The notes below the pieces were generated by a model. That model searched no databases. It had not been told where the DNA came from and saw only the letters and a program-made list of their open reading frames with translations. Below, in pieces: positions 26,069 through 43,685 of a stretch of DNA of 64,000 bases. Source of the DNA: Desulfovibrionaceae bacterium (lineage in GTDB: Bacteria; Desulfobacterota; Desulfovibrionia; Desulfovibrionales; Desulfovibrionaceae). The first letter of the stretch is position 1; each line of letters starts with the position of its first letter. A program made the translations under genes and the position numbers. The stretch is taken from the NCBI GenBank assembly GCA_031551515.1, contig JAVBNL010000023.1, forward strand, positions 23,048 to 87,047, written 5' to 3'.

Positions 26069-26135
26069 TCACCCCTTTACGCTGGATGTAAAAACCGCAA
26101 CCTTGAATCTTGATAGCCGCCCCGGCACGTGCCGG

Positions 26136-26858
26136 CTATGCGACGGCGTTTTCGTCGGGCTGGGATTTCGGCTTTTTAGCCGCGTCGATCCGCACTTTGC
26201 ACAGAACGTCCGTCAAATGCGCGGTCATGGCAGCGCGTGCCTCCCCCGAGTCACGTTGCCGGATCGCTTCGAATATCTGATGGTGGAACTCGTTGCTGCG
26301 CATGTTGCCGTGCACCCGCACGAAACTGCGCAACCACACGGTATACAGGGCTTTCAACATTTCTATGGACCGGTAAATGATGCTGTTGCCGGAGGCTTTG
26401 GCTATGGCCAGATGAAAATCCATGTCGTACAGAGCAAAACGCTCTTTATCCTCCATATGGCGCCGTGACAAAACCAGTGCGCGGTCCATGCATTCCAGAT
26501 CTTCGTCCGTGGCCTTCATGGCGGCCAGGGCGGCGCCCTGCGACTCCACGCCGATGCGGAACTCCGTCAGCGTTTCCAGGTTGGAATGCGCCTCAAGAAG
26601 AATGGGAAGCTGCAGATTGGTGAAGACGTCGACATTGATGTCTTTGAGAAAATAGCCTTCGCCGTGCCGCACCTCAAGAATGCCCAGGGCGTTGAGGCGG
26701 TTCAGCGCGGTGCGCACCGTGTTGCGGCTGACGCCGATGGAAATGACCAGCTCGTTTTCCGAAGGGATTTTGGTCCCCGGTTCGTAGCCTTGGGCGGCGA
26801 TGATCGCCAGGATGTGATTGAAGGTCTCGTTGGCCAGGTTGATCTTTTCTATGGACAT
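26136..26858 (-). CDS. GntR-family regulator, FadR subfamily (FCD domain)
   Basis: IPSENELVISIGVSRNTVRTALNRLNALGILEVRHGEGYF plus a helical C-terminal domain. I chose the start at MSIEK. Confidence 0.85.
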   Translation of the reverse strand: MSIEKINLANETFNHILAIIAAQGYEPGTKIPSENELVISIGVSRNTVRTALNRLNALGILEVRHGEGYFLKDINVDVFTNLQLPILLEAHSNLETLTEFRIGVESQGAALAAMKATDEDLECMDRALVLSRRHMEDKERFALYDMDFHLAIAKASGNSIIYRSIEMLKALYTVWLRSFVRVHGNMRSNEFHHQIFEAIRQRDSGEARAAMTAHLTDVLCKVRIDAAKKPKSQPDENAVA

Positions 26859-27041
26859 CAAGGCCTCCTGGTCTCGTGGGAGGTGACATATCACTTGTGC
26901 TACAAGTTTAACTTACCGATAACGCCCCCCTCTGTCAAGATGGCTGCCCCCCCCCTTGCCACGCCGCACCACATTCACTACATTGCCCACCGTAAAGCAT
27001 TTTCGCTTTGCAATGCTGTTTCGCTGTGCAGAGGAAACGTC

Positions 27042-27821: not shown

Positions 27822-27859
27822 AACGAGAAAAGCCCGCCGCATGGCGGGCTTTTCTCGTT
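27822..27859. terminator. Bidirectional terminator hairpin between convergent genes
   Basis: Perfect 17-bp stem: aacgagaaaagcccgcc / gcat / ggcgggcttttctcgtt. Confidence 0.7.
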
Positions 27860-27875: not shown

Positions 27876-28502
27876 TCAGGATTTAGTCAAACGTATGAAA
27901 CTCCAGCTGACGTCGCCGCGCCCGCGCAAATCGCCGCGCACGACCCGCTCGACCAGCGAGAGGCCGCATCGTTTCGCAAGATCCGCCGTCTCTTCCGGCG
28001 TGATGTCGAACATACGCCGCCCTTCCGGCACGGGACCGTGCCGGAGCGAAAGCAACAGCCCTCCGCCATCGGCCAGCAGGCCCGCCACACGGCGCATGGA
28101 AGACGCGCGCTCATCTTCCGTCAGGTGCATCCACACGGCCTGAATCAAGATGAAGTCATAGGGCCCGGCGTATGGGCCCCGCAACGCCGTCAAATCGGGC
28201 AGCGCGTCATCCACCCAATCCACGGATACGTCGCTGTGCAATGCCCTTCCCGCGTCCCGCATGGCGTCCGTGGGTTCCACGGCCACCACCGCATGCCCGC
28301 GTTTGGCCAGCGCCGCAGCATCACGGCCGCTGCCCGCGCCGACATCCAGCACCCGGCAGGGGGATGCGGGGAAAAGGCGCAGAAGGGTTCCGAACATCTC
28401 TTCAAAAGGGATGCTTTCGTACTGTTTCACCAGTTTGGCCGCGTCGCGGTCATACCCCGCCGCTGAAGGACAAAACACCATTTGACCCTCCGTGTCTCGC
28501 AC
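27876..28502 (-). CDS. Class I SAM-dependent methyltransferase (small-molecule type)
   Basis: Motif I VLDVGAGSGRDAAALA. There are no DNA-methyltransferase motifs. Confidence 0.8.
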   Translation of the reverse strand: MRDTEGQMVFCPSAAGYDRDAAKLVKQYESIPFEEMFGTLLRLFPASPCRVLDVGAGSGRDAAALAKRGHAVVAVEPTDAMRDAGRALHSDVSVDWVDDALPDLTALRGPYAGPYDFILIQAVWMHLTEDERASSMRRVAGLLADGGGLLLSLRHGPVPEGRRMFDITPEETADLAKRCGLSLVERVVRGDLRGRGDVSWSFIRLTKS

Positions 28503-28533: not shown

Positions 28534-29754
28534 TCAGCCCGCCCATTTGCCGGAAACGGCCGCGTCGATGCAGTGTTTCATGGACCCGAACCAGGTTTGC
28601 AACTTGTTGGAGCCCGGCGCGTAAAAGGCCATTTTGGCCGAGTTGGTGGCCAGCGACTTGAAGCCCAGAGCCTCCGGTATGCTGAGAATGGTGCACAAAT
28701 CCTGGGTTAGCACCGCGCCCGCCTTTTCAATGGCCTGCATGTAGCCAAGCTGCTTGGCCATGCCCTTGACCGCCGTGTTCACGTGAACCCAGCAGGTCAC
28801 GTCTTTGTTGATCTTCTTGCCTTCCAGGTAGGCCGCTATTTCGGCCACCTGGTTCAGGGTCAGATGCGGGCAGCCCAGCGCCACGTAATCCACCACCCGG
28901 TTCTTGTTGCTTGTAAGGCGTTCATAGCCCGCCTGCAACTCTTTGGGCCCCAACTCAACCTCTTGCCAGCCGGGAGCCAGCACGCGTTCACCCAGGGCCA
29001 ACGCGTCGGGCGTCTGCCCCAGCACGTGATACAGGGCCACGCCCCCGCTGGAAGCCAGCGCCGCGCCGAGATAGCAGTGCTCTTCCATGCTCATGCGATG
29101 CAGGCCGTCAAAGGCCGGGTTGTTGGTGCCGATGACGCTGCCCACATAGGCGCCCATGGCCCCGATATCCGCCAGGTCCTTGATGGGCGCGGTCACGCGG
29201 AATTTTATCTGCGCGCGGCGGTTTTCATCCAGGTGAAAGCCGTAGTACGGCGTTTTGCCGATCAACGCGGCGGCGAAAGCGCTGGGGCCGCCTTCGCGGT
29301 TGTCGCGCGCCCCCAGGGCGGAGTTGGTGAAGACCACGGCGGAAGATTCCGCCCAGGCGATATGTTCTCTGAATTGCGGCACAAAGCCGTAGAAATAGGG
29401 AGTACAGGAGGAGACGCCGTAACAGCCCGTGCGCTCATAACCCAGCCCGATGCGCAGCTGCTTGTCGCACCAGTCTTTGGGCAGGCCCAGATCGCGCGAA
29501 CGGTCGACGCCGATAACGTTCAAGGTGGTGGGCACCTTGACCCTGGCCCCGGCGGCGGCCGTTTCTTCTATCCATTCCATGCCCGCGACCCCGTGCGAAC
29601 GCAAAGAGAGGCCCGCCACATGCGCGCTGCGCACGGGAATGAGCTTTTCCGCCCCGTAGATCTTGCCGAGACCCACCAGCATTTCCATAGCCATGCGATA
29701 GGTCGGCCCCTCGGCCCCGTCCAGAATGCGCTTGTCAGCGTCGTCCAGTTTCAT
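28534..29754 (-). CDS. Aconitase X large (catalytic, DUF521) subunit
   Basis: The N-terminus MKLDDADKRILDGAEGPTYRMAMEMLVGLGKIYGAEKLIPVRSAHV is typical of DUF521. Confidence 0.85.
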   Translation of the reverse strand: MKLDDADKRILDGAEGPTYRMAMEMLVGLGKIYGAEKLIPVRSAHVAGLSLRSHGVAGMEWIEETAAAGARVKVPTTLNVIGVDRSRDLGLPKDWCDKQLRIGLGYERTGCYGVSSCTPYFYGFVPQFREHIAWAESSAVVFTNSALGARDNREGGPSAFAAALIGKTPYYGFHLDENRRAQIKFRVTAPIKDLADIGAMGAYVGSVIGTNNPAFDGLHRMSMEEHCYLGAALASSGGVALYHVLGQTPDALALGERVLAPGWQEVELGPKELQAGYERLTSNKNRVVDYVALGCPHLTLNQVAEIAAYLEGKKINKDVTCWVHVNTAVKGMAKQLGYMQAIEKAGAVLTQDLCTILSIPEALGFKSLATNSAKMAFYAPGSNKLQTWFGSMKHCIDAAVSGKWAG

Positions 29755-30170
29755 GAGCGGCCTCCTTCTTCAATGACCACCACTTGCTTGTCCGCGTCCA
29801 CTGTGACGATGTCGCCGTTTTTCAACGCCGTGAAGGGGTCTTCCTGCAGGCTGTCCACCACCGGCAGGCCGCTCATGATGGCTCCGCAGGCGATGATGGT
29901 TTCCGTCACCCTGTTAATGATGGCTTTGGGACCGGTGCCCATTTTCGCCAGTTGATAGACCACGTACGAGCCGCCCGTGCTGCCCTTGCCGTACGGAAAG
30001 ACGAGGATCTTGCCGGTGATGGAAACGCCGTTCAACTCGTGGTTGTGCTCAATGACGGTTCCGGTCTCGCAGTCAAAGCCGAAGTTGAACCCGATGGGCT
30101 GGCTGCACAGCAGCACTTCGCCCGTCGCGCGGCCCGGGCTGATGCCCCGGCAGGAAATGGTCCGTTTCAT
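29751..30170 (-). CDS. Aconitase X small (swivel, DUF126) subunit
   Basis: 139 aa with GRATGEVLLCSQPIGFNFGFD...GKILVFPYGKGSTGGS, and a 4-nt overlap with the large subunit gene. Confidence 0.85.
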   Translation of the reverse strand: MKRTISCRGISPGRATGEVLLCSQPIGFNFGFDCETGTVIEHNHELNGVSITGKILVFPYGKGSTGGSYVVYQLAKMGTGPKAIINRVTETIIACGAIMSGLPVVDSLQEDPFTALKNGDIVTVDADKQVVVIEEGGRS

Positions 30171-30198
30171 CGCTCGCTCCTTGGGTAACGGTAACGCC

Positions 30199-30696
30199 TC
30201 AGCGGCTTTTGATCTTTTCTTTCAGCGCTTCGATAAGCCCGCCCTTTTGCACCAGTTCCAGAATGTGCGCGGGCAGTTTGCTGCACGAATAGGTCGTGTT
30301 CTGCGTTTCGTTGCGGATGGCCCCCGCCGTAAAATCCAGCAGCAGAACGTCGCCCGGCTTGATTTTACCCGCATCGTCGCATTCCACCACGGGCAGCCCC
30401 AGGTTGATGGCGTTGCGGTAAAAAATGCGGGCGAAACTTTTGGCGATGACCGCGCCCAGGCCCAGATGTTTCAGGGCCAGCGGCGCAAGTTCGCGGCTGG
30501 AGCCGGAACCGAAGTTGTCGCCCGCAACAATCATATCACCAGACCGCACGCGGGCCGCGAAACCGGGGTCCACGCTGCTCATGGCGAACTTCGCCCCTTC
30601 TTCGACCGAAAGTTCCATGTACTGCGGGGGCGAGATGATGTCCGTATTGATGTTGTCGCCGAAAACGTGAGCTTTGCCCTTGCGTGTACTTTGCAT
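30199..30696 (-). CDS. Aconitase-family small subunit (LeuD/HacB-like)
   Basis: 165 aa with [14 protein letters not shown]...[10 protein letters not shown]. Confidence 0.85.
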
Positions 30697-30706
30697 GCGC
30701 GCCTCC

Positions 30707-31972
30707 TTACAGCAGCTCTCTGGGGTCGATGATTTCCCCGGCCACGGCGGCCGCGGCCACGCTGAGGGGCGAACCCAGATAGGTGAAGGCCTTTTTGCTG
30801 CCCATGCGCCCCAAAAAGTTGCGGTTGGTGGAAGAGATGCAGACTTCGCCGTCCGCCAGCGCGCCGGAGTGCAGGCCCACGCACACGCCGCAGGTGGGCG
30901 CGAGAATCACCGCGCCCGCTTCAGACAGGGTTTGCAAAATGCCGCTCGCCGCCGCCTTCTCCCAGATGCTTTTGGATGAAGGCGACACCAGCAGCCTGCG
31001 TCCGGCCTTGACTTTTTTGCCCTTCAAAAGCCGCGCCGCCAGCAAGAGGTCCGTATAGCGGCCGCCCGTGCAGGAGCCGATATAGGCCTGGTCGATACGC
31101 ACGCCCTTGCCCAGCTCGCGAATGGAGCTGACGTTGTCCACCTCGTGCGGGCAAGAGACCATAGGTTCCAGCGCGGTGGCGTCAAAGTCCAGCTCCCGGC
31201 AGAAACGCGCGTCCTTGTCGCTGCGCAGGGGCTCGAAATTCGCCGCTTTGCCGCGTTCTTTCAAAAAGGCCTTGGTCGTCGCGTCCGTGTTCATCAGACC
31301 CGCTTTGGCGCCCATTTCAACCGCCATGTTGGCGATGCAGAAGCGTTCGTCCATGCACAGGCCGTCAATGGCGGAACCCACATATTCCACGGTTTTATAG
31401 GTCGCCCCGGCGTGGCCTATGGCGCCGATGGTAGCCAGCGAAATGTCTTTGGCCATAACGCCCGCGGTGAGCGCGCCCCGCCATTCCACGCGAATGGTTT
31501 CAGGCACGCGCAGCCAGATCTGCCCGGTCACCAGAATGCCGACCATCTCGGTGGAGCCGATGCCGCTGGCGAACGCGCCCAGCGCGCCGCCCATGCAGGT
31601 GTGCGAATCGGTGCCCATGACCACGGCCCCCGGCAGCACGTGGCCGTGTTCCGCCATGATCTGGTGGCAGGGGCCCACGAACTCGTAATAGCGGTTCACG
31701 CCGTTTTCCGAGGCCCACTCCCGCGTGAACTTCACGATGGCGGCCTGCGCGGCGTTGGCCGGCGGAGTGTAGTGGTCGGAAATGACCACCACCTTTTCAG
31801 GGTCCCAGACCCTTGCCCCCAGCTCTTTCATGCGGTCGGCTATTTCGACCCGGGGGCCGAGAATGTCGTCCATCATGGCCACATCCACATTGGCCCACAC
31901 GATGTCGCCCGCCTGTACCGACTCTTTGCCCGCCGCGCGGGCGATGATCTTTTCAGACAGCGTTTTGCCCAT
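30707..31972 (-). CDS. Aconitase-family large subunit (LeuC/HacA-like, short archaeal-type)
   Basis: MGKTLSEKIIARAAGK...; Fe-S ligand contexts GTDSHT, GSCTGGR and PTCGVCVG. Confidence 0.85.
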   Translation of the reverse strand: MGKTLSEKIIARAAGKESVQAGDIVWANVDVAMMDDILGPRVEIADRMKELGARVWDPEKVVVISDHYTPPANAAQAAIVKFTREWASENGVNRYYEFVGPCHQIMAEHGHVLPGAVVMGTDSHTCMGGALGAFASGIGSTEMVGILVTGQIWLRVPETIRVEWRGALTAGVMAKDISLATIGAIGHAGATYKTVEYVGSAIDGLCMDERFCIANMAVEMGAKAGLMNTDATTKAFLKERGKAANFEPLRSDKDARFCRELDFDATALEPMVSCPHEVDNVSSIRELGKGVRIDQAYIGSCTGGRYTDLLLAARLLKGKKVKAGRRLLVSPSSKSIWEKAAASGILQTLSEAGAVILAPTCGVCVGLHSGALADGEVCISSTNRNFLGRMGSKKAFTYLGSPLSVAAAAVAGEIIDPRELL

Positions 31973-32041
31973 ATCGTACCTTCCTTTTCCGCTTGGACAG
32001 TTTACGCCGCGTGACCGCAAGAGTCACGCGGCGCTAAAGCC

Positions 32042-33406
32042 TTACGCGGCGCCGATTTCCTCAAGGGATTTGCCCTTGGTTTCAATCCCCAGGAAGTACA
32101 CCAGGGCCACGGCTATCCAGAAAAATACGGCCATGGTGATATAAATGCCGTAGTACATCTGGTTGGCCATGAAATATCCGAAGACCACGGGGCTTAGAGC
32201 GGAACTCACGCGCCCCGCGCCGGTGGACCAGCAGGTGGCCGTCGCGCGCACCTTTGAGGGATACAGCTCGGCCGTCCAGACCACGGTGCCCGCGACGCCC
32301 TGCTCATACAGATACGAAAGCAGGCAGGCTCCCCAGACCAGATAGGCGGGGTCGTTCAGCTTGCCGAAAACCAGGGCCGCAACGCCGCCCAGGCCGAAGC
32401 CCACGTAAAACAGCTGCTTTCTGCCGAATTTTTCAATGGTGTAAAAGGCGGTCAAACGGCCCAGAATGGCGGCGAGCGCCACATACAACGTATAGGTGAA
32501 GGTCTTGGCCATGCTCAGGCCGTAAACCATCGACAAAATGGAGGGCAGCCAGAGCACGAAGCCGTAATAGCCGAAATAGGCGAAGAAATAGTAGCCCGCC
32601 GTCAGGATGAAGCGCCGCAGGTACTCCTTTTGAAACAGCACGAAGACGGAGACTTTTTCGGCGGTGGCGTCCGATTGCAAGCCCACCACGTCCTCTTCTT
32701 TCGCCCCCAGCTTTTTCAGCACGGCGGCGGCCTCTTCCGTGCGCCCCTGCGCCGCCAGCCAACGGGGAGATTCAGGCACCCTGAAGGCCACGATGATGGC
32801 CAAAAGGGCCGGGGTCACGCCGATATAGAAGAGCACGCGCCAGCCGTATTCCGTCACCAGCAGCAAAGAGGCCACGGCCGCCACAAGCAGGCCGAAAGGC
32901 CAGAGCACGGTCAGCACGGCGACGAAGCGCCCCCGGTACCCGGCGGAGACGTATTCGGAAACAAGCGCGGTGTTGATGGGTATCATGCCGCCCAGGCACA
33001 TGCCGGTGACGAAGCGGATGATGCCGAATTCCATGACGTCGCGGGCGAACGCGGTCATGCCGGTCAGCAGACTGAAGCCCACAATGGTGCCGATGAACCC
33101 GACCTTGCGGCCGAATTTGTCGGAAACCGGACCCCAGATGACCGCGCCCAGAAACATGCCCCAAATGCCCGCCGAGGTCAGCATGCCGTTGACCACGGGC
33201 GTGATCGACCACTCTTTGATGATCGAAGGCATGGCGTAGGAGACGATATACGTGTCGAAAGAGTCGAACATGAAGCCCAAAGCCGCCGTGATCACTATGA
33301 AGTAGTGGATGCTTGAAAGCGAAAGTTTTTCCACCACGCTGCTGACCGTGGGTCTTGCCGCGCCCGGGCCGCCAAGGGTGTTAATGCCGTTCATCGTGCT
33401 CTGCAT
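32042..33406 (-). CDS. MFS transporter (metabolite:H+ symporter / sugar-porter-like)
   Basis: RBS AAGGAGAG and 12 predicted TM segments. GPVSDKFGRKV and PESPRWL motifs are present. Confidence 0.9.
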   Translation of the reverse strand: MQSTMNGINTLGGPGAARPTVSSVVEKLSLSSIHYFIVITAALGFMFDSFDTYIVSYAMPSIIKEWSITPVVNGMLTSAGIWGMFLGAVIWGPVSDKFGRKVGFIGTIVGFSLLTGMTAFARDVMEFGIIRFVTGMCLGGMIPINTALVSEYVSAGYRGRFVAVLTVLWPFGLLVAAVASLLLVTEYGWRVLFYIGVTPALLAIIVAFRVPESPRWLAAQGRTEEAAAVLKKLGAKEEDVVGLQSDATAEKVSVFVLFQKEYLRRFILTAGYYFFAYFGYYGFVLWLPSILSMVYGLSMAKTFTYTLYVALAAILGRLTAFYTIEKFGRKQLFYVGFGLGGVAALVFGKLNDPAYLVWGACLLSYLYEQGVAGTVVWTAELYPSKVRATATCWSTGAGRVSSALSPVVFGYFMANQMYYGIYITMAVFFWIAVALVYFLGIETKGKSLEEIGAA

Positions 33407-33433
33407 AGTCTGCTCTCCTTGTTGTGGTCGCGG

Positions 33434-34192
33434 TTACACGGGATAGGTGTCGTGTTCGAAGGCTTTGGGGTCATGGCCGGGAAGGATGAAGTCGCAAATC
33501 TTCTCCATCTTCGCGTAGGTGGCGTAATAGTCGTCCAGGCGGCAGTGAATGCCGGAAGGAATGTGCTTGTACATCGCGTTGCCTTCCCAGTTTTCAAACA
33601 GAGCGCAGCAGTCGCTGGCGACCAGGCCGCGCCCCTTGGCGGTATTGACCAGAACGCCCTGAAAACCGGGCGTGTGCCCGGGCAGGGTCACAAGGTCGAT
33701 GCCGGGGCACAGCGAAAAATCGCCGTCCACCGCGACGATCTGGCTGTATGCTTTGAACCAGCGCGGCGTCAGGCCCACCTGGTGCGATTCGTAATACACC
33801 CAGTGCGCGGGCAGCGGGTCCACGGCGTATTCCATCTCGCGTTTCTGCACGTAGATTTTGGCGTTGGGAAACAGGTCGTTGTTAAAACAGTGGTCCCAGT
33901 GCAGGTGCGTGTTGACCACCACGTCCACGTCTTTGGCTTCAACCCCGAACCGCTTCAGCCCTTCAAGCGGGTGCATGCCGGGGGAACGGAGCAGACCGTG
34001 GTGATGCTTGGCGGCCCAATCTTCGTCGGAACAGCCGGTATCGACCAGAACCACCCGATCGGGCCCCTTGATCAGGTACATGATGATCGGGGCCACAAGC
34101 TTGGTGCCCGGATCTACCTGGTAGGTAAAATTCGATTTTTCGGCCGCTTTGAACACGCCTGTCTTGATGGGGTGGATCGTATACTCTCGCAT
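33434..34192 (-). CDS. MBL-fold hydrolase, N-acyl-homoserine-lactonase-like
   Basis: RBS AAAGGAG and metal motif NTHLHWDH (HxHxDH), about 250 aa. Confidence 0.85.
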   Translation of the reverse strand: MREYTIHPIKTGVFKAAEKSNFTYQVDPGTKLVAPIIMYLIKGPDRVVLVDTGCSDEDWAAKHHHGLLRSPGMHPLEGLKRFGVEAKDVDVVVNTHLHWDHCFNNDLFPNAKIYVQKREMEYAVDPLPAHWVYYESHQVGLTPRWFKAYSQIVAVDGDFSLCPGIDLVTLPGHTPGFQGVLVNTAKGRGLVASDCCALFENWEGNAMYKHIPSGIHCRLDDYYATYAKMEKICDFILPGHDPKAFEHDTYPV

Positions 34193-34329
34193 GGTCGCTC
34201 CTTTTATATCGTCTGTTCCGCGCGCCGCCGCGCCTGAAAAAGGGTGTCGAGCAAGATGCCCGCTGTGAAACCGCAGGCGGCGTCCCGTTTCGGGACCGTT
34301 CCGAGTGGGGGATAAAGCGGCGCTAGCCG

Positions 34330-35484
34330 CTAATAAACCGATTTACGCACATATGCATACCCATCCATGATTTTACGCGCCGTGCGGTATACGCCGATGC
34401 GTTTCATGACGGTTTCGCCGTTCTTCGTTTCCGCTTCCGCCTCAACGGGTATGATCCCGCCGGGGTGGCCTATCTGCACGGTCATTCTGCTCTTCGCCTC
34501 TTCGCGCAGCACGTCCCAGGCCACGGTGCCGGGTATGCGCACGGCCGCGCCCGTGCAGACCGTGCCGGTAACCGGGTAGGTCTTGTGCATCTTGAGCATA
34601 AACAAGAGGCGGGAGACCAGATCCACTTCCTTCGCCTTCACCGTGCCGCCGCTGATGGTCGTGTAATCAGCGGGTTCGCTGACGATGGCGAAAAACGGCG
34701 TGTAGGGGCTTTTGGTGGCCGCGTCTTCGGGTTTGTCGACCAGGCCGCACCAGACGGCCGCCTGCCCCCGGATTTTTTCGATCAGCGCCATGAGGTTCTT
34801 GTCCGCTTCGATGGCGGCCGGGCTTTCCGTGCCTTTCAGGCCCAGCGAACGCGCGTGGATGAAGACCAGCGGGTTGCCCGCGTCCACCAGGGATATGGTG
34901 TAGTCTTTGCCATCGACGCTGATGACGTCTTTGACGTTGCCCGTGGGCAACAGCTTGCCCGTGGTCGGGCCGGTGACGTCCGACCAGTCCAGGGTAATCC
35001 GCGCGCCGGTGCCTGGGCAACCGTCAATGGCGTAGTCGCCGCAGACGGAAGCTTTGCCGTTTTTGACCGGCACTTCGGCGATCAGGATATGATTGCTGTT
35101 GGTCAGGTGAATGCGCACGGTGGTAACGGGTTCCACCGGTTCCACCAGGCCTTCGTCAATGGCGAAAGGGCCCACGGCGGCGGAGATGTTGCCGCAGTTG
35201 CCCTGGTAATCGATGAATTCCGTCTCGAAGCTGACCTGGCCGAAGGTGTAATCCACATCCGCATCCGGCCGGGAAGCGGGTGAGATGATGGCCAGCTTGC
35301 TGGTCAGCACGTCCGCGCCGCCGAGGCCGTCTATCTGGCGCACGTCGGGGCTGCCGTATATGGCGCGAATGACCGCGTCACGTTTTTGCGGGTCTTTGGG
35401 CAGTTCGTTCTTCATGATGAAAACGCCCTTGCTGGTGCCGCCCCGCACGATGGAACACCGTACCATTTCCATTTCAGGATGCAT
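34330..35484 (-). CDS. PrpF-family isomerase (2-methylaconitate / oxalomesaconate / methylitaconate isomerase family)
   Basis: RBS GGGAGGAAG precedes ATG 35484. The N-terminus is MVRCSIVRGGTSKGVFI. Confidence 0.85.
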   Translation of the reverse strand: MHPEMEMVRCSIVRGGTSKGVFIMKNELPKDPQKRDAVIRAIYGSPDVRQIDGLGGADVLTSKLAIISPASRPDADVDYTFGQVSFETEFIDYQGNCGNISAAVGPFAIDEGLVEPVEPVTTVRIHLTNSNHILIAEVPVKNGKASVCGDYAIDGCPGTGARITLDWSDVTGPTTGKLLPTGNVKDVISVDGKDYTISLVDAGNPLVFIHARSLGLKGTESPAAIEADKNLMALIEKIRGQAAVWCGLVDKPEDAATKSPYTPFFAIVSEPADYTTISGGTVKAKEVDLVSRLLFMLKMHKTYPVTGTVCTGAAVRIPGTVAWDVLREEAKSRMTVQIGHPGGIIPVEAEAETKNGETVMKRIGVYRTARKIMDGYAYVRKSVY

Positions 35485-35500
35485 GCTCTTCCTCCCGGCT

Positions 35501-36496
35501 TTAGCGCGCTTGAGAAACCGCGACGGCAAGGGCGACCGTGGCCCCCACCATGGGGTTGTTGCCCATACCCAGAAAACCCATCATTTCCACGTGAGCGGGC
35601 ACCGAAGAAGACCCCGCGAACTGCGCGTCACAGTACATGCGGCCCACAGTGTCGGTCAAACCATACGAGGCCGGGCCCGCGCCGTTGTCGTCCGGGTGCA
35701 CGGTGCGGCCCGTGCCGCCGCCGGAAGCCACGGCGAAAAAGTTCCGTCCGTTGTCGCCGCACCATTTTTTATAGGTGCCCGCCACGGGGTGCTGAAAGCG
35801 GGTCATGTTGGTGGAGTTGCCGGTGATGCAGACGTCCACTTTTTCACTGACCATAACGGCCACGCCTTCCGGCACGTCGTCCGCGCCATAGCAGCGCACC
35901 GCCGCCCTGGGCCCGGCAGAGAAAGCCCGCTCCTCTTTGATGGCCAGTGTTTCGGCGGCGTAGTCGTATTCTGTGCGCACGTAGGTGAAGCCGTTGATGC
36001 GCGAGATGATGTACGCCGCGTCTTTGCCCAGGCCGTTCAAGATGACCCGCAGGGGGGTTTTGCGCACTTTGTTGGCCGATTGCGCGATGCCGATGGCCCC
36101 TTCGGCCGCGGCGAACGATTCATGCCCGGCCAGAAAGGCAAAACAGCCCGTCTCTTCGTGCAGCAGCCGGGCGGCGAGGCGCCCGTGCCCCAGGCCCACT
36201 TTGCGGTGATCGGCCACGGAACCGGGCAGGCAAAACGCCTGCAAGGCTTCGCCTATAGCTTCCGCAATGGCCGGGGCTTCTTTTTCGCCCCGCGCGACGG
36301 CGACGGCCGCCCCCAAGGTGTAGGCCCAGCAAGCGTCGTCAAAACAGATGGCCTGAATGCCCCGCACCAGGGCGAAAGGGTCCACGCCCCGGGCCTGAAC
36401 CCGCGCGCGGGCGTCTTCCAGCGAAGCTATGCCGTTCGCCTGCAAACAGGCCGTTATCGCGGGCATGCGCAGTTCTTTGTTTTCAAATGCGGTCAT
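35501..36496 (-). CDS. GGGtGRT-family protein (function unknown)
   Basis: Contains the eponymous ASGGGTGRTVHPDDNG motif. RBS GGAGG is present. Confidence 0.8.
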   Translation of the reverse strand: MTAFENKELRMPAITACLQANGIASLEDARARVQARGVDPFALVRGIQAICFDDACWAYTLGAAVAVARGEKEAPAIAEAIGEALQAFCLPGSVADHRKVGLGHGRLAARLLHEETGCFAFLAGHESFAAAEGAIGIAQSANKVRKTPLRVILNGLGKDAAYIISRINGFTYVRTEYDYAAETLAIKEERAFSAGPRAAVRCYGADDVPEGVAVMVSEKVDVCITGNSTNMTRFQHPVAGTYKKWCGDNGRNFFAVASGGGTGRTVHPDDNGAGPASYGLTDTVGRMYCDAQFAGSSSVPAHVEMMGFLGMGNNPMVGATVALAVAVSQAR

Positions 36497-36510
36497 GGTC
36501 GCCTCCGGCC

Positions 36511-37188
36511 CTATTCCCTACGGGGGTCAATGGTTCTGACGGCTTCGCCGAAGCGGCCGTAAACGCCCTTTGCCGCATCGTACGCCTGGTCGGGGCTTTG
36601 CCCCGCCGCGATCTGGTTCATCATCTTGCCCAAGTTGACGAATTCGTACCCGATGATTTCGCTGTTTTCGTCCAGCGCCAGGCGGGTCACATAGCCTTCC
36701 GTCATTTCAAGATAGCGCGGCCCGTTGGCCACAGTGCCGTACGAGGTGCCCACCTGGCTGCGGCAGCTGGAGCCGAGATCTTCCATGGCCGCGCCGATAG
36801 GCAGGCCGCCGTCGGAATACGAACTTTGCGTGCGGCCGTACGCGATGGTGGTGAACAGCGATTTCATGGCGCTGTTGGTGGCGTCGCAGACAAGGTCGGT
36901 GTTAAGAGCCTCAAGCAGCGTTTTGCCCGGCAGAATCTCTGCGGCCATGGCCGCGGAATGACTCATGCCGGAACAGCCGATATGCTCAATGAGCGCTTCG
37001 TGCACGATGCCGTCTTTGACGTTCAGCGTCAGTTTGCAGGTGCCCATTTGCGGCGCGCACGTACCACAGCCGTGGGCGAAACCGGATATATCCGCGACTT
37101 GCTTTACGCGCGTCCATTTACCTTCCTGAGGAATGGGCGACGGGCCGTGATTGGGCCCCTGCCGGACGATACAGAGGGTTTCAGACAT
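36511..37188 (-). CDS. NifU/IscU-N-terminal-like Cys-containing protein
   Basis: FAHGCGTCAPQMGTC...HIGCSGMSHSAAMAAEILPGKTLLEA resembles the IscU scaffold fold. It is the first gene of the operon. Confidence 0.7.
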   Translation of the reverse strand: MSETLCIVRQGPNHGPSPIPQEGKWTRVKQVADISGFAHGCGTCAPQMGTCKLTLNVKDGIVHEALIEHIGCSGMSHSAAMAAEILPGKTLLEALNTDLVCDATNSAMKSLFTTIAYGRTQSSYSDGGLPIGAAMEDLGSSCRSQVGTSYGTVANGPRYLEMTEGYVTRLALDENSEIIGYEFVNLGKMMNQIAAGQSPDQAYDAAKGVYGRFGEAVRTIDPRRE

Positions 37189-37244
37189 GAACGACGCCCC
37201 TTTGCTGAAAATTACGAAATGGATGCATGTGCCGCTCTCCTAAT

Positions 37245-37260
37245 AACAAGAAGCATGCCA
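37245..37260 (-). promoter_or_regulatory. Candidate sigma-54 (-24/-12) promoter for the nine-gene operon
   Basis: The minus strand reads TGGCATGcttcTTGTT against the consensus TGGCACG-N4-TTGCW. The spacing is correct with one mismatch in the -12 GC. It lies about 57 nt upstream of ATG 37188. Confidence 0.45.
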
Positions 37261-37481
37261 AGTGCCCGGGCAGCCCCTATCCACGCCTTTCGGCCGCAGC
37301 CGCCTCGGCGCGCGGAACACGGCCCACCCCTTTTGGTGTTTCATTTTCATCCGGCTTGTTGCCGGGCAGAAATAAAAACAGCGATTTTGCAACGGCGCGC
37401 GCAAGAATTTTTGCAGTGAACTTGGTGGAATAGCAGCATAATATGTGATTTTTTCAGTAATTAAACAACAATTTCCATTTA

Positions 37482-37497
37482 TGGAACATTGCTTGCT
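37482..37497 (+). promoter_or_regulatory. Candidate sigma-54 (-24/-12) promoter upstream of the activator gene
   Basis: TGGAACAttgcTTGCT with correct GG-N10-GC spacing, about 54 nt upstream of ATG 37551. Confidence 0.45.
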
Positions 37498-37550
37498 AAA
37501 AACCGCCGCCTCCGGTAGCTTCCACAAACACCCTGCCAAGGAGTCGACTC

Positions 37551-39458
37551 ATGAACGCCCCGGTCCGCATCGCGCTTATCGCTACCTACCCCGACATCGC
37601 CCAGCTGTTTCGCGACCTGGCGCAGGACAGGCCGGATATCGTGGCGCGGGATGTTTACGCCTCTTTTGACGACGCCATTAAGACCGCAAAAAAGCTGGAA
37701 CGCGAAACAGACGTCATTCTCAGCCGGGGGGGCACGGGCGAGTTCATACGCCGTAGCGTGGGCATACCCGTGGTGCAGTTGGCCATCACCCCGTTCGACG
37801 TGGTGCTGGCCATGCAAAAGCTGCCGCCGGGGGTTACGGAATTCGCTCTTTCCCACTACAACTCGCCCATTTACGGGCTGGAAGAAATACAGAAAATCTA
37901 CGGCGTCACCATTCACGAATATACGTTTGAAACACTGCGCGACATAGAAGAGAGCGTTGTCGACATTCAGCGGCGCGGCATCAGAAACGTGCTGGGCGGC
38001 CACGTCATAACCAACTTGCTGCGCGACCACGGCATATTCGGGGTGACCCTCAGCGCGGGGCTTGATACCGTAAACCGGGCGCTGAACGAAGCCATGTCCA
38101 TCGTTTTTGAAGCGCGCAAAGAACGCAACAGAACGGCCAGGCTGGCCGCCGCCTTCAACTCCATCACCACCGGGCTGGTGCTGACGGACGACAAAAACAA
38201 GGTACTTGCCTGCAACCCCGTGGCAAGCAAGCTTTTTGGCCGGCAACACCCCGTGGGCAGCAGCTTCACGGACGACGCGGCCGACCCCATGCTGCGCGAG
38301 GCGCTGCGAACCCGCACGGCCCGCACCAACTATATCTGCAACATCCGCGACACCCTCATCAACGCCGGGCACATGCCCGTGTATCTGGATAACAATTTCA
38401 TCGGCTTCGTGCACACCTTTGAAGACGTCACGAAAATCCAGACGCTTGAGCAGGCCATACGCAAACAGATGCACGACAAGGGTTTTGTGGCGCGGTACCG
38501 CTTTTCCGACATTTTCACCACGGACCCCACCCTGGAAATGCTCAAACGCACGGCCCAATCATACGCGCGCAGCAAATCGACCGTGCTGATAGAGGGCGAA
38601 TCGGGCACGGGCAAGGAACTTTTCGCCCAAAGCCTGCACAACGCCAGCCCCAGGGCGGATATGCCCTTTGTGGCGGTCAACTGCGCGGCCATACCGGCCA
38701 ATCTGCTGGAAAGCGAACTCTTCGGATACGAAGCCGGGGCCTTTACCGGCGCGAAAAAAGAAGGCAAACCCGGCCTTTTTGAAATAGCCCACAACGGCAC
38801 CATTTTTCTGGACGAAATCGGGGATTTGCCCAGGGAGTTTCAAGCGCGGCTGCTGCGCGTGCTGCAAGAAAAAGAGTTCATGCGCGTGGGCGGCGGCAAG
38901 GTCATGCCCGTGGATGTCAGGGTCATCAGCGCCACCAACAAGAACCTGCGCGAACTGGCCGCCAAAGGGGAATTCAGAGAGGACCTCTTTTACCGGCTGG
39001 GCGTATTCACCCTGACCCTGCCGCCTTTGCGGGAACGGGCTTGCGACATAGACCCCCTGTGCCGCAAATTTTTGGCCGACCAGGGACTGACGCAGGATAC
39101 GGGGATCGTGCGCCGGTTGCTGCCCCGGCTGCTGGCGCATAGCTGGCCCGGCAACATACGCGAACTGCGGAATATTTCCGAACGCATGGCCCACCTCGTC
39201 AATACCGGCGGCGACTATTCGCCGGAAGAGCTCGACCTGACTCTGGGCCTCGGCTCGCCCAAACACAACGGTGATTTTTACGCGCGCATCGACCTGGAAC
39301 AGCAGCGCGGCCTGAAGAGCATTGTGGATACAGTTGAAAAGCAGGTCATCGGCCACTTGCTGCGGCTGCACGACAACAAATACGCGGATGTGGCCAAACG
39401 CCTGGGCATAGGCCGCACCACGCTCTGGCGCAAACACAACCACGCGGACGCGCCCTGA
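37551..39458 (+). CDS. Sigma-54-dependent transcriptional activator with PrpR-type N-terminal sensor domain, PAS, AAA+ and Fis-type HTH
   Basis: RBS AAGGAG. PrpR_N-like block VILSRGGTGEFIRRSVGIPVVQLAITPFDVV. AAA+ motif GESGTGKE and sigma-54 contact motif GAFTGA. C-terminal HTH VAKRLGIGRTTLWRK. Confidence 0.9.
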   Translation: MNAPVRIALIATYPDIAQLFRDLAQDRPDIVARDVYASFDDAIKTAKKLERETDVILSRGGTGEFIRRSVGIPVVQLAITPFDVVLAMQKLPPGVTEFALSHYNSPIYGLEEIQKIYGVTIHEYTFETLRDIEESVVDIQRRGIRNVLGGHVITNLLRDHGIFGVTLSAGLDTVNRALNEAMSIVFEARKERNRTARLAAAFNSITTGLVLTDDKNKVLACNPVASKLFGRQHPVGSSFTDDAADPMLREALRTRTARTNYICNIRDTLINAGHMPVYLDNNFIGFVHTFEDVTKIQTLEQAIRKQMHDKGFVARYRFSDIFTTDPTLEMLKRTAQSYARSKSTVLIEGESGTGKELFAQSLHNASPRADMPFVAVNCAAIPANLLESELFGYEAGAFTGAKKEGKPGLFEIAHNGTIFLDEIGDLPREFQARLLRVLQEKEFMRVGGGKVMPVDVRVISATNKNLRELAAKGEFREDLFYRLGVFTLTLPPLRERACDIDPLCRKFLADQGLTQDTGIVRRLLPRLLAHSWPGNIRELRNISERMAHLVNTGGDYSPEELDLTLGLGSPKHNGDFYARIDLEQQRGLKSIVDTVEKQVIGHLLRLHDNKYADVAKRLGIGRTTLWRKHNHADAP

Positions 39459-40982: not shown

Positions 40983-41597
40983 TTACTTAATGAAGCCGAC
41001 CTGCTTGCTGATCTCGGCAATGGCCTTCTCTTTTTTCTTGTTGTAGACGACCTTGTTTTCTTCAAACAAATTGCGGCCCTTGGTGTCGATGGAAACGATC
41101 AGCGGGCCGAACTCTTTCACCCGGCAGACCCACAGGGTTTCGGGCATGCCCAGGTCGCGCCACTGGGCGTCTTCGATCTCTTCAACCTGGGTCGCGGCCA
41201 CAACGCCGCAGCCCGCGGGAAAAACCAGGTGCAGGGCTTTGTTCCTCACGCAGCCTTCCACCGTGCCCGCGCCCATGCCGCCTTTGCCGACCACCAGTTT
41301 GACGCCGGTCTGGGCGATGAATTCCTTTTCAAACTTTTCCATGCGCATGCTGGTGGTGGGGCCGATGGAGACCATCTCGAACTTGTCGCCCCCGATGGGC
41401 CGCACGATGGGGCCGGCGTGGAAAATGGCCAGGCCCTTCAGGTCCACGGGCAGGGGGCGTTTTTCTTCGATCAGGCGCCGGTGCGCCACGTCGCGGCACG
41501 TTATCAGGTACCCGTTCAGATAGACGATGTCGCCCACGTTGATATCGGCAATATCCGCGTCCTTGACGGGCGTGGTCAGAATCTTCTTCGCGCTCAT
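40983..41597 (-). CDS. Fe-S hydro-lyase beta subunit (class I fumarate hydratase / L(+)-tartrate dehydratase family)
   Basis: [21 protein letters not shown]...GAGPIV...VVGKGGMG, with a 4-nt overlap with the alpha subunit gene. Confidence 0.85.
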
Positions 41598-42499
41598 ATG
41601 ACGGCCCCCTTGTGGGATTTGATGACGTGCTTCAGGTCTTTGTCAAACACGATGTGGCCCCGGCGGTGGGACCAGCAGCCGACGTTCACGGCCACCCCGA
41701 TGGTGGAGGGGTGCCGGGCGGTGTTTTCAATATGCACGCCCATGACCGAATTCACGCCGGACATGCCCTGGGGACCCAGGCCGATGCTGTTGATGCCGTC
41801 TTCAAGCAGTTTTTCCATGCCCGCCGCGCGCGCGTTGGCGTTATGCGTGCCGATGGGCCGCATCAGCGCTTTTTTGGACAGCAGCGCCGCCGTTTCCACG
41901 GATGTGGCCACGCCCACGCCCACCAGCAGCGGAGGACAGGCGTTGAGGCCGTAGGTAGTCATGATGTCCAGCACAAACTCGGTCACGCCTTCGTACCCGG
42001 CGCCGGGCATCAGCACCATGGCCTTGCCGGGCAGGGTACAGCCGCCGCCAGCCATGTAGGTGTAAATTTCAACGTCATCGCGGCCGGGCACGATTTCCCA
42101 GAACAACGTGGGCGTGCCCGTGCCGATGTTTTTGCCGGTGTTGAATTCGTCAAAAGTTTCCACGCTGTTGTGGCGCAGGGGGGCTTTGACCGTGGCGTCA
42201 AGCACGGCTTCGGTCAGGATAGCTTCCAGGTTGGCCAGCAGGGGGAAATTCGAGCCGCACTTGACCCAGAATTGCAGCACCCCGGTATCCTGGCAACAGG
42301 GGCGGTTCAGCTCCATGGCCAGTCGCTGGTTCTCGGCCATGGTGTCGTAAATGGTTTTGGCCAGCGCACTGGTCTCTTCGGCCCGCAGGTCGGCCAGCTT
42401 TTTTTCAACGTCGTCAGGCAGTTTCTTGCCGACCAGGGCGACGAACTTGCTCATCACGCCGGTCATCTCGCGGACATGCTGTTCACTTGCCATCTGCAA
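41594..42499 (-). CDS. Fe-S hydro-lyase alpha subunit (class I fumarate hydratase / L(+)-tartrate dehydratase family)
   Basis: [16 protein letters not shown] and [11 protein letters not shown] are motifs typical of the alpha-type catalytic domain. Confidence 0.85.
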
Positions 42500-42695: not shown

Positions 42696-43592
42696 CTAAG
42701 CTTGAGGAAGCAATTCTGCCATAAAGGTTCTTGCCGCGCGGGAAAGCTGAATGCCCTTGGCCGTGACCACGCAGACCGTGCGCGGGGGAACGGGTTCGGG
42801 CGTTTTCACCACAAAGGCCCTGCCCGCCGCTATGCTTTCTTCGGCAAAGGCGCTGATGACCAGGCCCACCCCCATGCCGCGCTCCACACAGGGAATGATC
42901 AGCACCGTGGTTGACAGCTCGATCATGGGGCTGAATTCAAGCCCCCGCTCGTGGAAAAAAGCCCCCTGAAAGCGCCGCGTGGCCGTGCCCTGCCCCAGCG
43001 CGATAAGGGGCAGGCCGAGCAGTTCGTCCCAGGGCACCACCCTGCCCTGCAAATGCGCATATTGCGGCCCGGCGATAAAGGCGTCGCGAACCTCGCCTAT
43101 CTCGTGCGCGGTGCAGGCGCCGTCCATTTCCGGGGGCAGCGGCTTCATGACCACGGCCAGGTCAAGGCGTTCTTTGCGGATGTCTTCCAGCAAATGAAAG
43201 GCCTGCGCCGCCCGGGTAGTAATTTTTATCTGCGGGTGCCGCTCGCGGAACGAAGCCAGGCCGGGCAGCAAAAACCGCTGCAGGATCAGGTCGGAAGAGC
43301 CGATGCGCACTTCCCCGCGTTCCAGGTCCAGCAGGCTTTGCAGCTTGTTCTCGCCGGCGGCCAGCGTTTCGCAGGCGCGTTCGGCATAGGGGAAAAGCTC
43401 CTTGCCTTCCGGCGTCAGGGTCATGCCTTTGGGCAGACGGATAAAGAGAGCGCAGCCGAGCAGTTCTTCCATCTGCCGGATGCGCTTGGTCAGGGCGGGC
43501 TGCGAGATGAACAGCGCCTGCGCCGCGTGGGTCAGGTTGCCCGCGCGCGCCACATGGTAAAAGGCCTTGTAATATTCCAGGTCGATTTTCAT
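42696..43592 (-). CDS. LysR-family transcriptional regulator
   Basis: YYKAFYHVARAGNLTHAAQALFISQPALTKRIRQMEELLG plus a substrate-binding domain. Confidence 0.85.
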   Translation of the reverse strand: MKIDLEYYKAFYHVARAGNLTHAAQALFISQPALTKRIRQMEELLGCALFIRLPKGMTLTPEGKELFPYAERACETLAAGENKLQSLLDLERGEVRIGSSDLILQRFLLPGLASFRERHPQIKITTRAAQAFHLLEDIRKERLDLAVVMKPLPPEMDGACTAHEIGEVRDAFIAGPQYAHLQGRVVPWDELLGLPLIALGQGTATRRFQGAFFHERGLEFSPMIELSTTVLIIPCVERGMGVGLVISAFAEESIAAGRAFVVKTPEPVPPRTVCVVTAKGIQLSRAARTFMAELLPQA

Positions 43593-43685
43593 GGGTGCCG
43601 CCCGCAAGAGTCCGTTCCGGCGAAAATGGATGCGCCGCCTTTCGGTCTATGCCAGGAGGGATAATTTCGCAACAGGCAGGCCCGG

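Follow-up and report, generated by a model that had tools for sequence, protein, structure and literature searches.

Organisation and control of the operon

The DNA analysed here is a 64,000-nt stretch of a Desulfovibrionaceae contig (the window), and the element in question, read at positions 28534–39458, is an activator-controlled operon that combines an isomerase, two hydratases of the aconitase superfamily, a lactonase-like hydrolase and a carrier. The open reading frame list, together with Pfam and NCBIfam scans, bears out the nine co-directional minus-strand genes, from 37188 down to 28534, that a sequence-only reading had proposed. The first two encode an IscU/NifU-like protein of 225 aa (36511–37188) and a GGGtGRT-family protein of 331 aa (35501–36496; PF14057, E 1e-171). 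These are followed by a PrpF-superfamily isomerase of a Mii-like subfamily (34330–35484; PF04303, E 1e-123), a lactonase-like dinuclear-metal hydrolase of the metallo-beta-lactamase (MBL) fold (33434–34192; Lactamase_B PF00753, E 1.5e-23) and a major facilitator superfamily (MFS) carrier related to aromatic-acid/H+ symporters (32042–33406; PF00083 and PF07690). The last four genes encode the large (LeuC/HacA/DmdA-like, 30707–31972 with the start codon re-set to 31972; PRK00402) and small (LeuD/DmdB family with a YMEL loop, 30199–30696; TIGR02087) subunits of an aconitase-superfamily hydratase, and the small (swivel, 29751–30170; PF01989, E 1.3e-29) and large (phosphomevalonate-dehydratase-like, 28534–29754; PF04412, E 1e-129) subunits of AcnX. 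The scans upheld all the family assignments made earlier, although for the 225-aa protein, which has no Pfam hit, the NifU match is weak.

A clear GGAG-type ribosome-binding site lies ahead of eight of the nine genes, and the intergenic spacing, from first to last gene, is 14, 16, 137, 27, 69, 10, 28 and −4 nt, the negative value being an ATGA overlap of the AcnX small and large subunit genes. This overlap and the maximum of 137 nt between the PrpF and MBL genes are as first described; the 69 nt between the MFS and LeuC genes somewhat exceed the 10–45 nt given for most gaps. There was no evidence of a regulatory RNA in the 137-nt gap (34193–34329), which had no Rfam match, an unexceptional fold z-score (0.43) and no −24/−12 site.

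The transcript probably extends one gene further. A gene for an S-adenosylmethionine-dependent methyltransferase (27876–28502, minus strand; Methyltransf_25/23/11) starts 31 nt past AcnX on the same strand with no terminator-like site in the spacer, and a strong hairpin with a 14-bp stem and a T run (27824–27857) is found 19 nt past the methyltransferase stop codon. A short spacer without a terminator and a hairpin beyond the methyltransferase make a ten-gene transcript probable, with the hairpin as the likely operon end. The methyltransferase would then probably be a tenth, lineage-specific gene; none was seen after AcnX in three of the related loci (L083, L005 and L172; relatives are coded L002–L176). 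The terminator region also gave weak Rfam matches of the Thr_leader type on both strands, and the hairpin could serve a convergent NUDIX-like gene as terminator too.

Divergent from the operon is a gene for a sigma-54 activator of 635 aa (37551–39458, plus strand). Its Pfam domains (PrpR_N PF06506, E 8.7e-32; PAS_8; Sigma54_activat PF00158, E 3e-69; AAA_lid_14; and a Fis-type helix-turn-helix, PF02954/HTH_8) agree with the PrpR_N–PAS–AAA+–helix-turn-helix architecture predicted beforehand, and the translation carries GESGTGKE (Walker A) and GAFTGA, which qualifies it as a sigma-54 enhancer-binding protein. It scored below the cut-offs of the PrpR equivalog models (401 against 499 bits and 371 against 703 bits), and has 67% identity to the L174 activator, whose gene occupies the corresponding place in that related locus.

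The −24/−12-like sequence reported before the first gene, TGGCATGCTTCTTGTT (37245–37260, minus strand), is present 57 nt ahead of the first start codon, but carries two mismatches. Its GG and spacing fit TGGCAC-N5-TTGC, but the −12 element is TTGT, not TTGC. Sites with two mismatches occur 17 times across the window against approximately 42 expected, hence this site alone is not above chance. The uncommon TTGTT −12 element recurs, however, ahead of the orthologous first gene in L174 (TGGCACGGTTCTTGTT), L175 (TGGCATGTTTTTTGTT) and L176 (TGGCACAAATTTTGTT). Furthermore, sites with no mismatch or one precede operons with a PrpR-type activator in L082, L085, L012, L017, L010, L014, L008, L172 and L093. 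Near-consensus sites are present in 10 or more related loci, and no −24/−12 site was found in the acidobacterial versions under LysR regulators. The rpoN gene itself sits within the rumen cluster (L085, 8092–10728 region; also L012 and L017). The weak site in the window is credible because matching sites are conserved in related loci, and sigma-54 control of the operon, as predicted from these promoter sequences, is well supported by comparison. A second −24/−12-like element with one mismatch, TGGAACATTGCTTGCT (37482–37497, plus strand), lies 54 nt ahead of the activator gene and suggests that the activator itself may be sigma-54 dependent, with possible autoregulation. The divergent intergenic region contained nothing remarkable in the way of repeats that could be candidate activator sites.

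Related loci and the enzymes they share

Related loci were collected by an MBL-seeded search of a genome collection, a PrpF-seeded metagenome search and neighbourhood look-ups of exact proteins. This comparison of gene neighbourhoods revealed a recurrent cluster family that extends beyond Desulfovibrionaceae to Negativicutes, rumen Clostridia and Acidobacteriota, with genes 60–85% identical. The most complete contiguous version (L172), in a Negativicutes metagenome-assembled genome (MAG), has an activator gene and, in this order, genes for MBL, MFS, a methyl-accepting chemotaxis protein, an enoate reductase (old yellow enzyme type), the IscU-like and GGGtGRT proteins, PrpF, the AcnX small and large subunits, LeuC, LeuD, a family-III CoA transferase and an HMG-CoA-lyase-like (HMGL) protein; L082 resembles it. 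Versions from Acidobacteriota (L083, L005 and L004) are LysR-controlled and hold MBL, PrpF, LeuCD and AcnX, with or without the CoA transferase and HMGL. Rumen versions (L012, L017 and L085) hold LeuCD, HMGL, CoA transferase, GGGtGRT, IscU-like, MBL, activator, PrpF and rpoN genes and a LarA homologue. The latter passes the equivalog cut-off for the nickel-dependent malate racemase (LarAH6), which points to malate-type 2-hydroxy-dicarboxylate intermediates. L174, in a Desulfovibrionaceae MAG, shares the head of the operon (IscU-like 84% and GGGtGRT 79% identical to the window), beyond which it has a tripartite ATP-independent periplasmic (TRAP) transporter, a lyase of the isocitrate lyase (ICL)/phosphoenolpyruvate (PEP)-mutase type, AcnX, MBL, a sodium symporter and LeuC.

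In a census taken over 50 loci of 8 kb or more, all with a PrpF of the Mii-like kind (identity of 45% or above), LeuC was present in 32, an MBL-family gene in 20, an enoate reductase in 14 and AcnX in 7. The CoA transferase together with the HMGL-like lyase was present in 11 of the 50 and an ICL-type lyase in 16, never both. The HMGL-like proteins score above the cut-off of the HMG-CoA-lyase subfamily model, and the CoA transferases of the clusters score best against mesaconate and glutarate CoA-transferases. By tblastn, no CoA-transferase, HMGL, CitE/HpcH, ICL/PrpB-type lyase, enolase paralogue or split transketolase was found in the 64-kb window. As neither lyase module is encoded there, the last step would be encoded elsewhere or performed by other metabolism. 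Within this widespread cluster family, the operon is a truncated version or a variant. The literature searched contained no description of the cluster, and to that extent the claim of an undescribed system stands; it is not a single occurrence, however, given the relatives in several phyla. The sequence-only reading had also named no closest characterised analogue, whereas the PrpF is Mii-like, and a Mii-like PrpF with LeuCD and a lyase forms a widespread module.

Some loci hold further genes. An enolase paralogue recurs in PrpF clusters, either adjoining AcnX or at another place (L004, 462–1739; L083, 20316–end; L095, 13128–14384; L106; L112). The copy in L095 scores above the phosphopyruvate hydratase equivalog cut-off (366 against 300 bits), and no role for the paralogue is evident in the pathway proposed below. 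Split transketolase-like N- and C-terminal halves adjoin CoA-transferase/HMGL or GGGtGRT–PrpF genes (L010, 15099–16876; L090, 4130–5949; L011; L017; L051; L130), and a D-2-hydroxyacid dehydrogenase adjoins the CoA-transferase/HMGL genes in L010 and also in L014, which has no transketolase match. These transketolase and dehydrogenase neighbours are a hint that some variants pass through an intermediate of the ketol or hydroxypyruvate type. In L176 (9304–17098), a Desulfovibrionaceae-type MAG, the head of activator and GGGtGRT genes precedes an enoate reductase gene and two TctABC tricarboxylate transporters, each with an Amidohydro_2 (LigI/ACMSD-family) gene, so that the downstream cargo is unlike that of the window.

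The isomerase matches PF04303 over positions 3–370 of 371 (413 bits). Its best match in the PDB is 3G7K, the 3-methylitaconate delta-isomerase (Mii) of E. barkeri (417.7 bits, 53.6% identity over 371 residues), followed by an uncharacterised PrpF-family protein (approximately 262 bits), PrpF itself (approximately 258–260) and LigU (approximately 211). The catalytic Lys and Cys motifs, SKLAI and GNCGN, are conserved in the alignment with 3G7K, and the equivalog cut-offs for prpF (298 against 440.6) and OMA_tautomer (342 against 440) were missed. These matches place the window PrpF in a Mii-like subfamily. It is 79–82% identical to copies from Acidobacteriota and Negativicutes, yet 72% identical to an oral Desulfovibrio copy. 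Together with the shuffled gene order (window versus L004, L005, L082, L083, L172 and L002), this pattern suggests that the module has moved laterally between phyla.

The LeuCD subunits reach the subfamily cut-offs, with LeuC scoring 534 against PRK00402 (cut-off 385) and 502 against hacA_fam (cut-off 386), and LeuD scoring 176.7 against TIGR02087 (LEUD_arch; cut-off 109). Scores fell below the equivalog cut-offs for LEU2 (437 against 611) and HacA (426 against 550) in LeuC, and for leud (170 against 246) and HacB (160 against 230) in LeuD. The best PDB match of LeuD is the isopropylmalate/citramalate isomerase subunit MJ1277 of M. jannaschii. The substrate loop of LeuD reads YMEL and is invariant in 15 loci, the window included, from three phyla; the corresponding loop is YLVY in isopropylmalate isomerase and YLRT in homoaconitase. 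The Arg of the homoaconitase loop probably binds the extra carboxylate, as the corresponding Arg of aconitase does. With no Arg and a conserved Glu, the YMEL loop argues against a substrate with a third carboxylate. YMEL-type LeuD genes stand beside the CoA transferase and HMGL in 10 of the 15 loci and beside an ICL-type lyase in none, while ICL-linked LeuD proteins have other loops and 38–51% identity. The window LeuCD belongs to a distinct subfamily marked by the YMEL loop. No LeuA or LeuB genes were detected in the operon by the Pfam and NCBIfam scans.

Both AcnX subunit models were matched over their full length (PF04412, 432.9 bits; PF01989, 102.3 bits). The large subunit is nearest to the phosphomevalonate dehydratase (PMDh) of T. 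kodakarensis (7CNR, 275 bits), and the three Cys that bind the PMDh cluster have their counterparts in SSCTPY, GCPH and DLCT of AcnX. PMDh holds a [4Fe-4S] cluster by three Cys and dehydrates a tertiary 3-hydroxy-3-methyl acid to a trans product (PMC10040528). The C3LHyp equivalog cut-off was missed (257 against 700 bits), and the same scans of the operon found neither hydroxyproline nor mevalonate genes. No function had been assigned to the AcnX subclasses IIc–f by 2021 (PMC8184944), nor was a later assignment found in the literature searched, and the window AcnX probably falls in one of them. The description of the two dehydratase systems as unrelated has to be withdrawn, for LeuCD and AcnX both belong to the aconitase superfamily (PMC8184944) and LeuC itself gave a weak match to PF04412.

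Across 30 homologues, the metal ligands of the MBL protein (HxHxDH, H173 and H240) do not vary. In the family profile, AiiA-type N-acyl-homoserine lactone (AHL) lactonases reach approximately 1e-27 and 4-pyridoxolactonase 4.5e-23, and all lactonase equivalog cut-offs were missed (best 94 against 375). The MFS carrier scores 278 bits against TIGR00895, under the 418 cut-off. The MBL gene adjoins a transporter gene (MFS, TRAP or sodium symporter) in almost every locus, and its pairing with MFS is kept in L002, L082, L172, L018 and L019. Transporters of the related loci include TRAP, DASS, CitMHS/MatC and TctABC systems, all of them di- or tricarboxylate carriers. Five loci from gut Clostridia (L007, L008, L010, L011 and L014) hold an MBL of the same subfamily (55–57% identity) between a TRAP transporter, citrate/citramalate-lyase-type genes and a CoA-transferase/HMGL pair. 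All five have CitD/E/F, L008 also has a confirmed CitC and L007 a confirmed CitG, and none has PrpF, LeuCD or AcnX. The presence of MBL without these three enzymes implies a role that is independent of the isomerase and the hydratases.

The two genes in promoter-proximal position, which the sequence-only reading had left without a functional assignment, indeed have none, but they are not specific to this pathway. Homologues of each number more than 8000, at identities of at least 69% (GGGtGRT) and at least 66% (IscU-like) among the matches listed, which span Desulfovibrionaceae, Negativicutes, Clostridia and Bacteroidales, and a common gut bacterium carries the two on their own next to rnf genes. 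The GGGtGRT protein matches PF14057 from end to end (570.7 bits, model positions 1–327 of 327) and carries ASGGGTGRT in its translation. Its AlphaFold2 (AF2) model (mean predicted local distance difference test, pLDDT, 84.2; predicted TM-score, pTM, 0.85) has a disordered GGGTGRT loop; a fold comparison of this model with the PDB returned nothing at E of 1e-3 or below (TM at most 0.29), and a sequence search of the PDB gave no match. The 225-aa protein scores weakly against NifU_clost (21.8 bits, cut-off 187.9; E 1.9e-4) and against NifU in the PDB (4eb5, E 0.005), and C44, C72 and C101 are invariant in its homologues. Its AF2 model has low confidence (pLDDT 61.6), with approximately 36 top Foldseek hits that are all IscU/ISCU/SufU at a target TM of approximately 0.5. 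The model is suggestive of an N-terminal half like an IscU/NifU scaffold and a C-terminal domain of unassigned type.

Two reports connect such proteins with iron. The BT0173-74 pair of B. thetaiotaomicron is repressed 11–13-fold under iron limitation (PMC10434189), and the GGGtGRT protein of C. pasteurianum is among the proteins altered by iron availability. The activator with the IscU-like and GGGtGRT genes forms a conserved head in Desulfovibrionaceae-type loci, with varying genes downstream, and across the related loci the pair accompanies Fe-S enzymes (LeuCD, AcnX and enoate reductase). As Fe-S enzymes are the theme shared by the variable downstream genes, the most economical guess is that the pair supplies or repairs Fe-S clusters of labile dehydratases, a role we propose tentatively and somewhat against the balance of probability.

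Proposed pathway, alternatives and surroundings

From the observed protein families, operon anatomy and membership of a recurrent cluster family, we infer the following chemistry. The gene set is still best interpreted along the outline already drawn by the sequence-only reading, in which an unsaturated acid is imported, hydrolysed, isomerised and hydrated or dehydrated. The PrpR-type activator would sense an organic acid and switch the operon on, the MFS carrier would import a carboxylated substrate, and the lactonase-like MBL would open a lactone, ester or anhydride form of it. Mii-like PrpF may then move an exocyclic methylene double bond into conjugation, converting an itaconate-type to an alkylmaleate-type acid, for example itaconate to citraconate. 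YMEL-type LeuCD, as a predicted [4Fe-4S] hydratase, would add water to the cis-alkylmaleate to give an (R)-2-alkylmalate, such as (R)-citramalate from citraconate, and PMDh-like AcnX would interconvert a tertiary 3-hydroxy-3-methyl acid and the trans isomer, such as citramalate and mesaconate. One isomerase and two stereo-complementary Fe-S hydratases could in this way funnel isomeric C5 ene-dioates into citramalate. This chemistry is the simplest in which every enzyme has a single task. Fuller relatives would go on to cleave the hydroxy acid, by the family-III CoA-transferase with the HMG-CoA-lyase-like enzyme or by the ICL/PEP-mutase-type lyase; their enoate reductase would yield methylsuccinate-type products, and their malate-racemase-like LarA would equilibrate the enantiomers of 2-hydroxy-dicarboxylates.

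That the operon serves the catabolism of a branched or unsaturated dicarboxylate is likely. The model as a whole, in which a sigma-54 operon takes itaconate/citraconate/mesaconate-type acids, or a lactone or ester of them, to citramalate-type 2-alkylmalates, is the one we favour, at a little under an even chance. A substrate drawn specifically from the C5 itaconate/citraconate/mesaconate family is possible, though more doubtful. Itaconate and methylsuccinate are abundant in human faeces, according to work cited in PMC12290011, which lends the model ecological plausibility.

Several points weigh against this model. The native substrate of Mii is C6 3-methylitaconate, not itaconate, and the enzymes of the window's subfamily are all uncharacterised, the substrate being predicted from sequence. 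The pathway is incomplete here, as the window has neither a C-C lyase nor a CoA-transferase. A plain itaconate/citraconate route offers no evident task for MBL, and a natural lactone precursor is not established. The role given to AcnX is argued solely by analogy with PMDh, and that of GGGtGRT is guesswork, since it has no detectable structural or sequence relative; the IscU-like/GGGtGRT pair, being found alone elsewhere, may be housekeeping and not linked to the pathway. Finally, the PrpR_N sensor and the CitCDEFG genes, succinyl-CoA-ligase-like genes and citrate-type carriers of some relatives would also fit tricarboxylates.

The kinship of PrpF with Mii, its nearest solved relative, could also be taken at face value. 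The operon would then run a C6 nicotinate-type tail as in E. barkeri, from 3-methylitaconate to 2,3-dimethylmaleate (PrpF as Mii) and to 2,3-dimethylmalate (LeuCD as DmdAB), with AcnX and MBL serving upstream steps in the degradation of another heterocycle or lactone. The window small subunit falls in the LeuD/DmdB subfamily, the ICL/PEP-mutase-type lyase of the 16 census loci belongs to the dimethylmalate lyase family, and L174 has such a lyase with AcnX and MBL. This lyase is missing from the window, however, and neither methyleneglutarate mutase nor any other nicotinate gene was seen among the annotated neighbours of the loci examined. Moreover, the YMEL form of LeuD never accompanies an ICL-type lyase, the LeuD proteins that do so differing in loop and identity as described above. 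We therefore regard a C6 route as unlikely.

The sensor domain leads in another direction. PrpR itself senses 2-methylcitrate, and the PrpR_N domain of the activator would suit a tricarboxylate route, in which trans-aconitate or the lactone of isocitrate, hydroxycitrate or homocitrate is turned into citrate or isocitrate by MBL, PrpF as aconitate isomerase, LeuCD and AcnX. The absence of a lyase from the window would fit a product that is already a central metabolite, the homoaconitase models score high (426–502 bits), and some relatives have CitCDEFG, a citryl-CoA-synthetase-like SucCD, or DASS, CitMHS or TctABC carriers; the PrpF superfamily also takes in aconitate isomerases (PMC4720413). 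Against this, the LeuD loop is YMEL, with its conserved Glu and no Arg, and not the YLRT of homoaconitase; the window PrpF is far closer to Mii than to PrpF or other members; the HacA and aconitase equivalog cut-offs were missed; and the dominant partner lyase is HMG-CoA-lyase-like, not citrate-lyase-like. A tricarboxylate route is decidedly unlikely on this evidence, and of the di/tricarboxylate substrate suggested at first, we retain the unsaturated acid, with the tricarboxylate disfavoured by the LeuD loop.

It is also conceivable that the operon is a mosaic, in which the activator and the IscU-like/GGGtGRT pair are the conserved regulated unit and the downstream enzymes are interchangeable cargo from unrelated acid routes, with the methyltransferase as an accidental passenger. 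L174, L175 and L176 do share the head and the promoter with the TTGTT-type −12 element while their downstream genes differ, gene order is shuffled among the window, L082 and L172, and the PrpF identities suggest lateral module transfer. Yet PrpF, LeuCD, AcnX, MBL and MFS recur together in four phyla at 60–82% identity, the variable cargo has a common chemical theme, and the operon in the window has short gaps, one overlap that suggests translational coupling and a single terminator, which leaves a mosaic improbable. Routes for 2-pyrone-4,6-dicarboxylate/gallate, ascorbate/2,3-diketogulonate, mevalonolactone/HMG, pyridoxolactone and tetrapyrrole-derived maleimides were rejected, as each idles several conserved enzymes or needs absent ones.

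The flanks of the operon hold regulators, a class I fumarase, a CobW-like GTPase and sugar ABC (ATP-binding cassette) transport. A two-gene block on the minus strand (40983–42499 and 42696–43607) begins 1.5 kb past the activator and is followed by a LysR regulator; its upstream gene has the class I fumarase domain PF05681 and its downstream gene encodes 204 aa. Class I fumarases also hydrate mesaconate, and a link of this block to the operon is conceivable. Beyond it (43686–48875, minus strand) lie genes for a 602-aa GTPase of the CobW/HypB/UreG type, a 384-aa protein with a weak MBL match, a 467-aa protein without a Pfam hit and a GntR/FCD regulator, which may form a metal-chaperone-linked cluster. 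Just downstream of the operon, the region 19336–26894 holds a sugar-type ABC transporter (periplasmic binding protein and ATPase), a UPF0261-family protein (21211–22455) and a GntR/FCD regulator (26136–26894).

Meaning and comparison with known systems

Itaconate acts as an immunometabolite and an antimicrobial, as do its isomers; to our knowledge, the known routes of itaconate degradation all begin with CoA activation. The cluster family could represent a CoA-independent entry route, not described before, in strict anaerobes of gut, mouth, rumen and soil, taking host or fungal itaconate, mesaconate, citraconate, or a lactone or ester of them, to citramalate, a broad proposal that we advance as speculative and on balance unlikely. 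An anaerobic route based on Fe-S hydratases would alter models of what becomes of these acids in the gut, the rumen and soil. If this broad proposal is true, AcnX type IIc–f would gain a first functional handle as a mesaconate/citramalate-type hydratase, YMEL would mark a new specificity class of LeuCD, and the IscU-like/GGGtGRT pair would serve aconitase-superfamily dehydratases as their own system for Fe-S delivery or repair. The operon unites in one inducible context an AcnX beyond types I, IIa and IIb, GGGtGRT, which is prominent in gut metaproteomes, and its IscU-like partner, making their functions directly testable. Whatever the substrate, clusters that join a Mii-like isomerase to LeuCD and to either of two lyase modules, which exclude each other, are widespread and were undescribed in the literature searched.

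The mismatch with the methylcitrate, leucine, hydroxyproline and gallate/protocatechuate routes, noted from the start, was substantiated: the relevant NCBIfam equivalog cut-offs were missed, and PrpB/ICL-type, HMGL and CitE homologues are absent from the window. By equivalog scores and partner genes, the operon likewise falls outside the lysine and mevalonate systems. With the methylcitrate cycle (AcnD/PrpF and PrpR), the operon shares a sigma-54 activator of the PrpR_N type, a PrpF-superfamily isomerase and an aconitase-superfamily dehydratase. It differs in having no PrpB-type lyase and in an AcnD equivalog score of 73 against 1420 bits; PrpC did not turn up in the general family scans, which included no search aimed at it. 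With the PMDh of T. kodakarensis it has in common a two-subunit AcnX with three Cys ligands, whereas the context, unlike that of PMDh or the hydroxyproline AcnX, is a bacterial, probably catabolic operon without mevalonate or hydroxyproline genes.

The classical degradation of itaconate (Ict, Ich and Ccl in Pseudomonas, Yersinia and Salmonella) resembles the route proposed here in substrate class and in the end products pyruvate and acetyl-CoA. The classical route is CoA-dependent from the start, with a MaoC-type hydratase and an HpcH-type lyase, whereas the route proposed for the window would use free acids, an isomerase and oxygen-sensitive Fe-S hydratases, with no Ict/Ich homologue. The Pseudomonas itaconate cluster further encodes accessory enzymes that act on related C5 acids, as well as a lactonase for 2-hydroxyparaconate (PMC9875883; PMC12290011), but it was rejected as a match, as its accessory isomerase is MmgE/PrpD and not PrpF, and its lactonase has the glyoxalase fold and not that of MBL (PMC9875883).

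Two systems are closer. The (R)-citramalyl-CoA lyase of Chloroflexus belongs to the HMG-CoA-lyase family, and the fuller relatives of the operon carry a family-III CoA-transferase and an enzyme of that family; the Chloroflexus enzymes were compared by description. The nearest solved relative of the window LeuD is, furthermore, an isopropylmalate/citramalate isomerase, and the (R)-citramalate route opens with a citraconate hydratase of the LeuCD type. The corresponding activities on (R)-citramalate are succinyl-CoA:(R)-citramalate CoA-transferase (EC 2.8.3.20) and (R)-citramalyl-CoA lyase (EC 4.1.3.46) (PMC8307300). Unlike the Chloroflexus (R)-citramalate route, the window lacks both cleavage enzymes, its direction would be catabolic and its context anaerobic.

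The nicotinate tail of E. barkeri (Mii, DmdAB and Dml) shares with the window a PrpF-superfamily delta-isomerase and a two-subunit Fe-S hydratase of the LeuCD type, and with many of the relatives a lyase of the ICL/PEP-mutase type, the family of Dml. The window differs in having no such lyase, and the upstream nicotinate genes were not seen among the annotated neighbours. Its LeuD belongs to the separate YMEL subgroup that pairs with CoA-transferase and HMGL-like genes, DmdAB having been compared by description, not by sequence. The window also adds AcnX, MBL, MFS, the IscU-like/GGGtGRT pair and sigma-54 control of the PrpR type. The operon thus departs from the nicotinate tail and the (R)-citramalate route in its LeuD specificity class, AcnX and MBL, the alternative lyase modules of its relatives (absent here), sigma-54 control and the embedded pair. 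It brings known enzyme types together in a new combination, and represents a widespread, uncharacterised and probably catabolic cluster.

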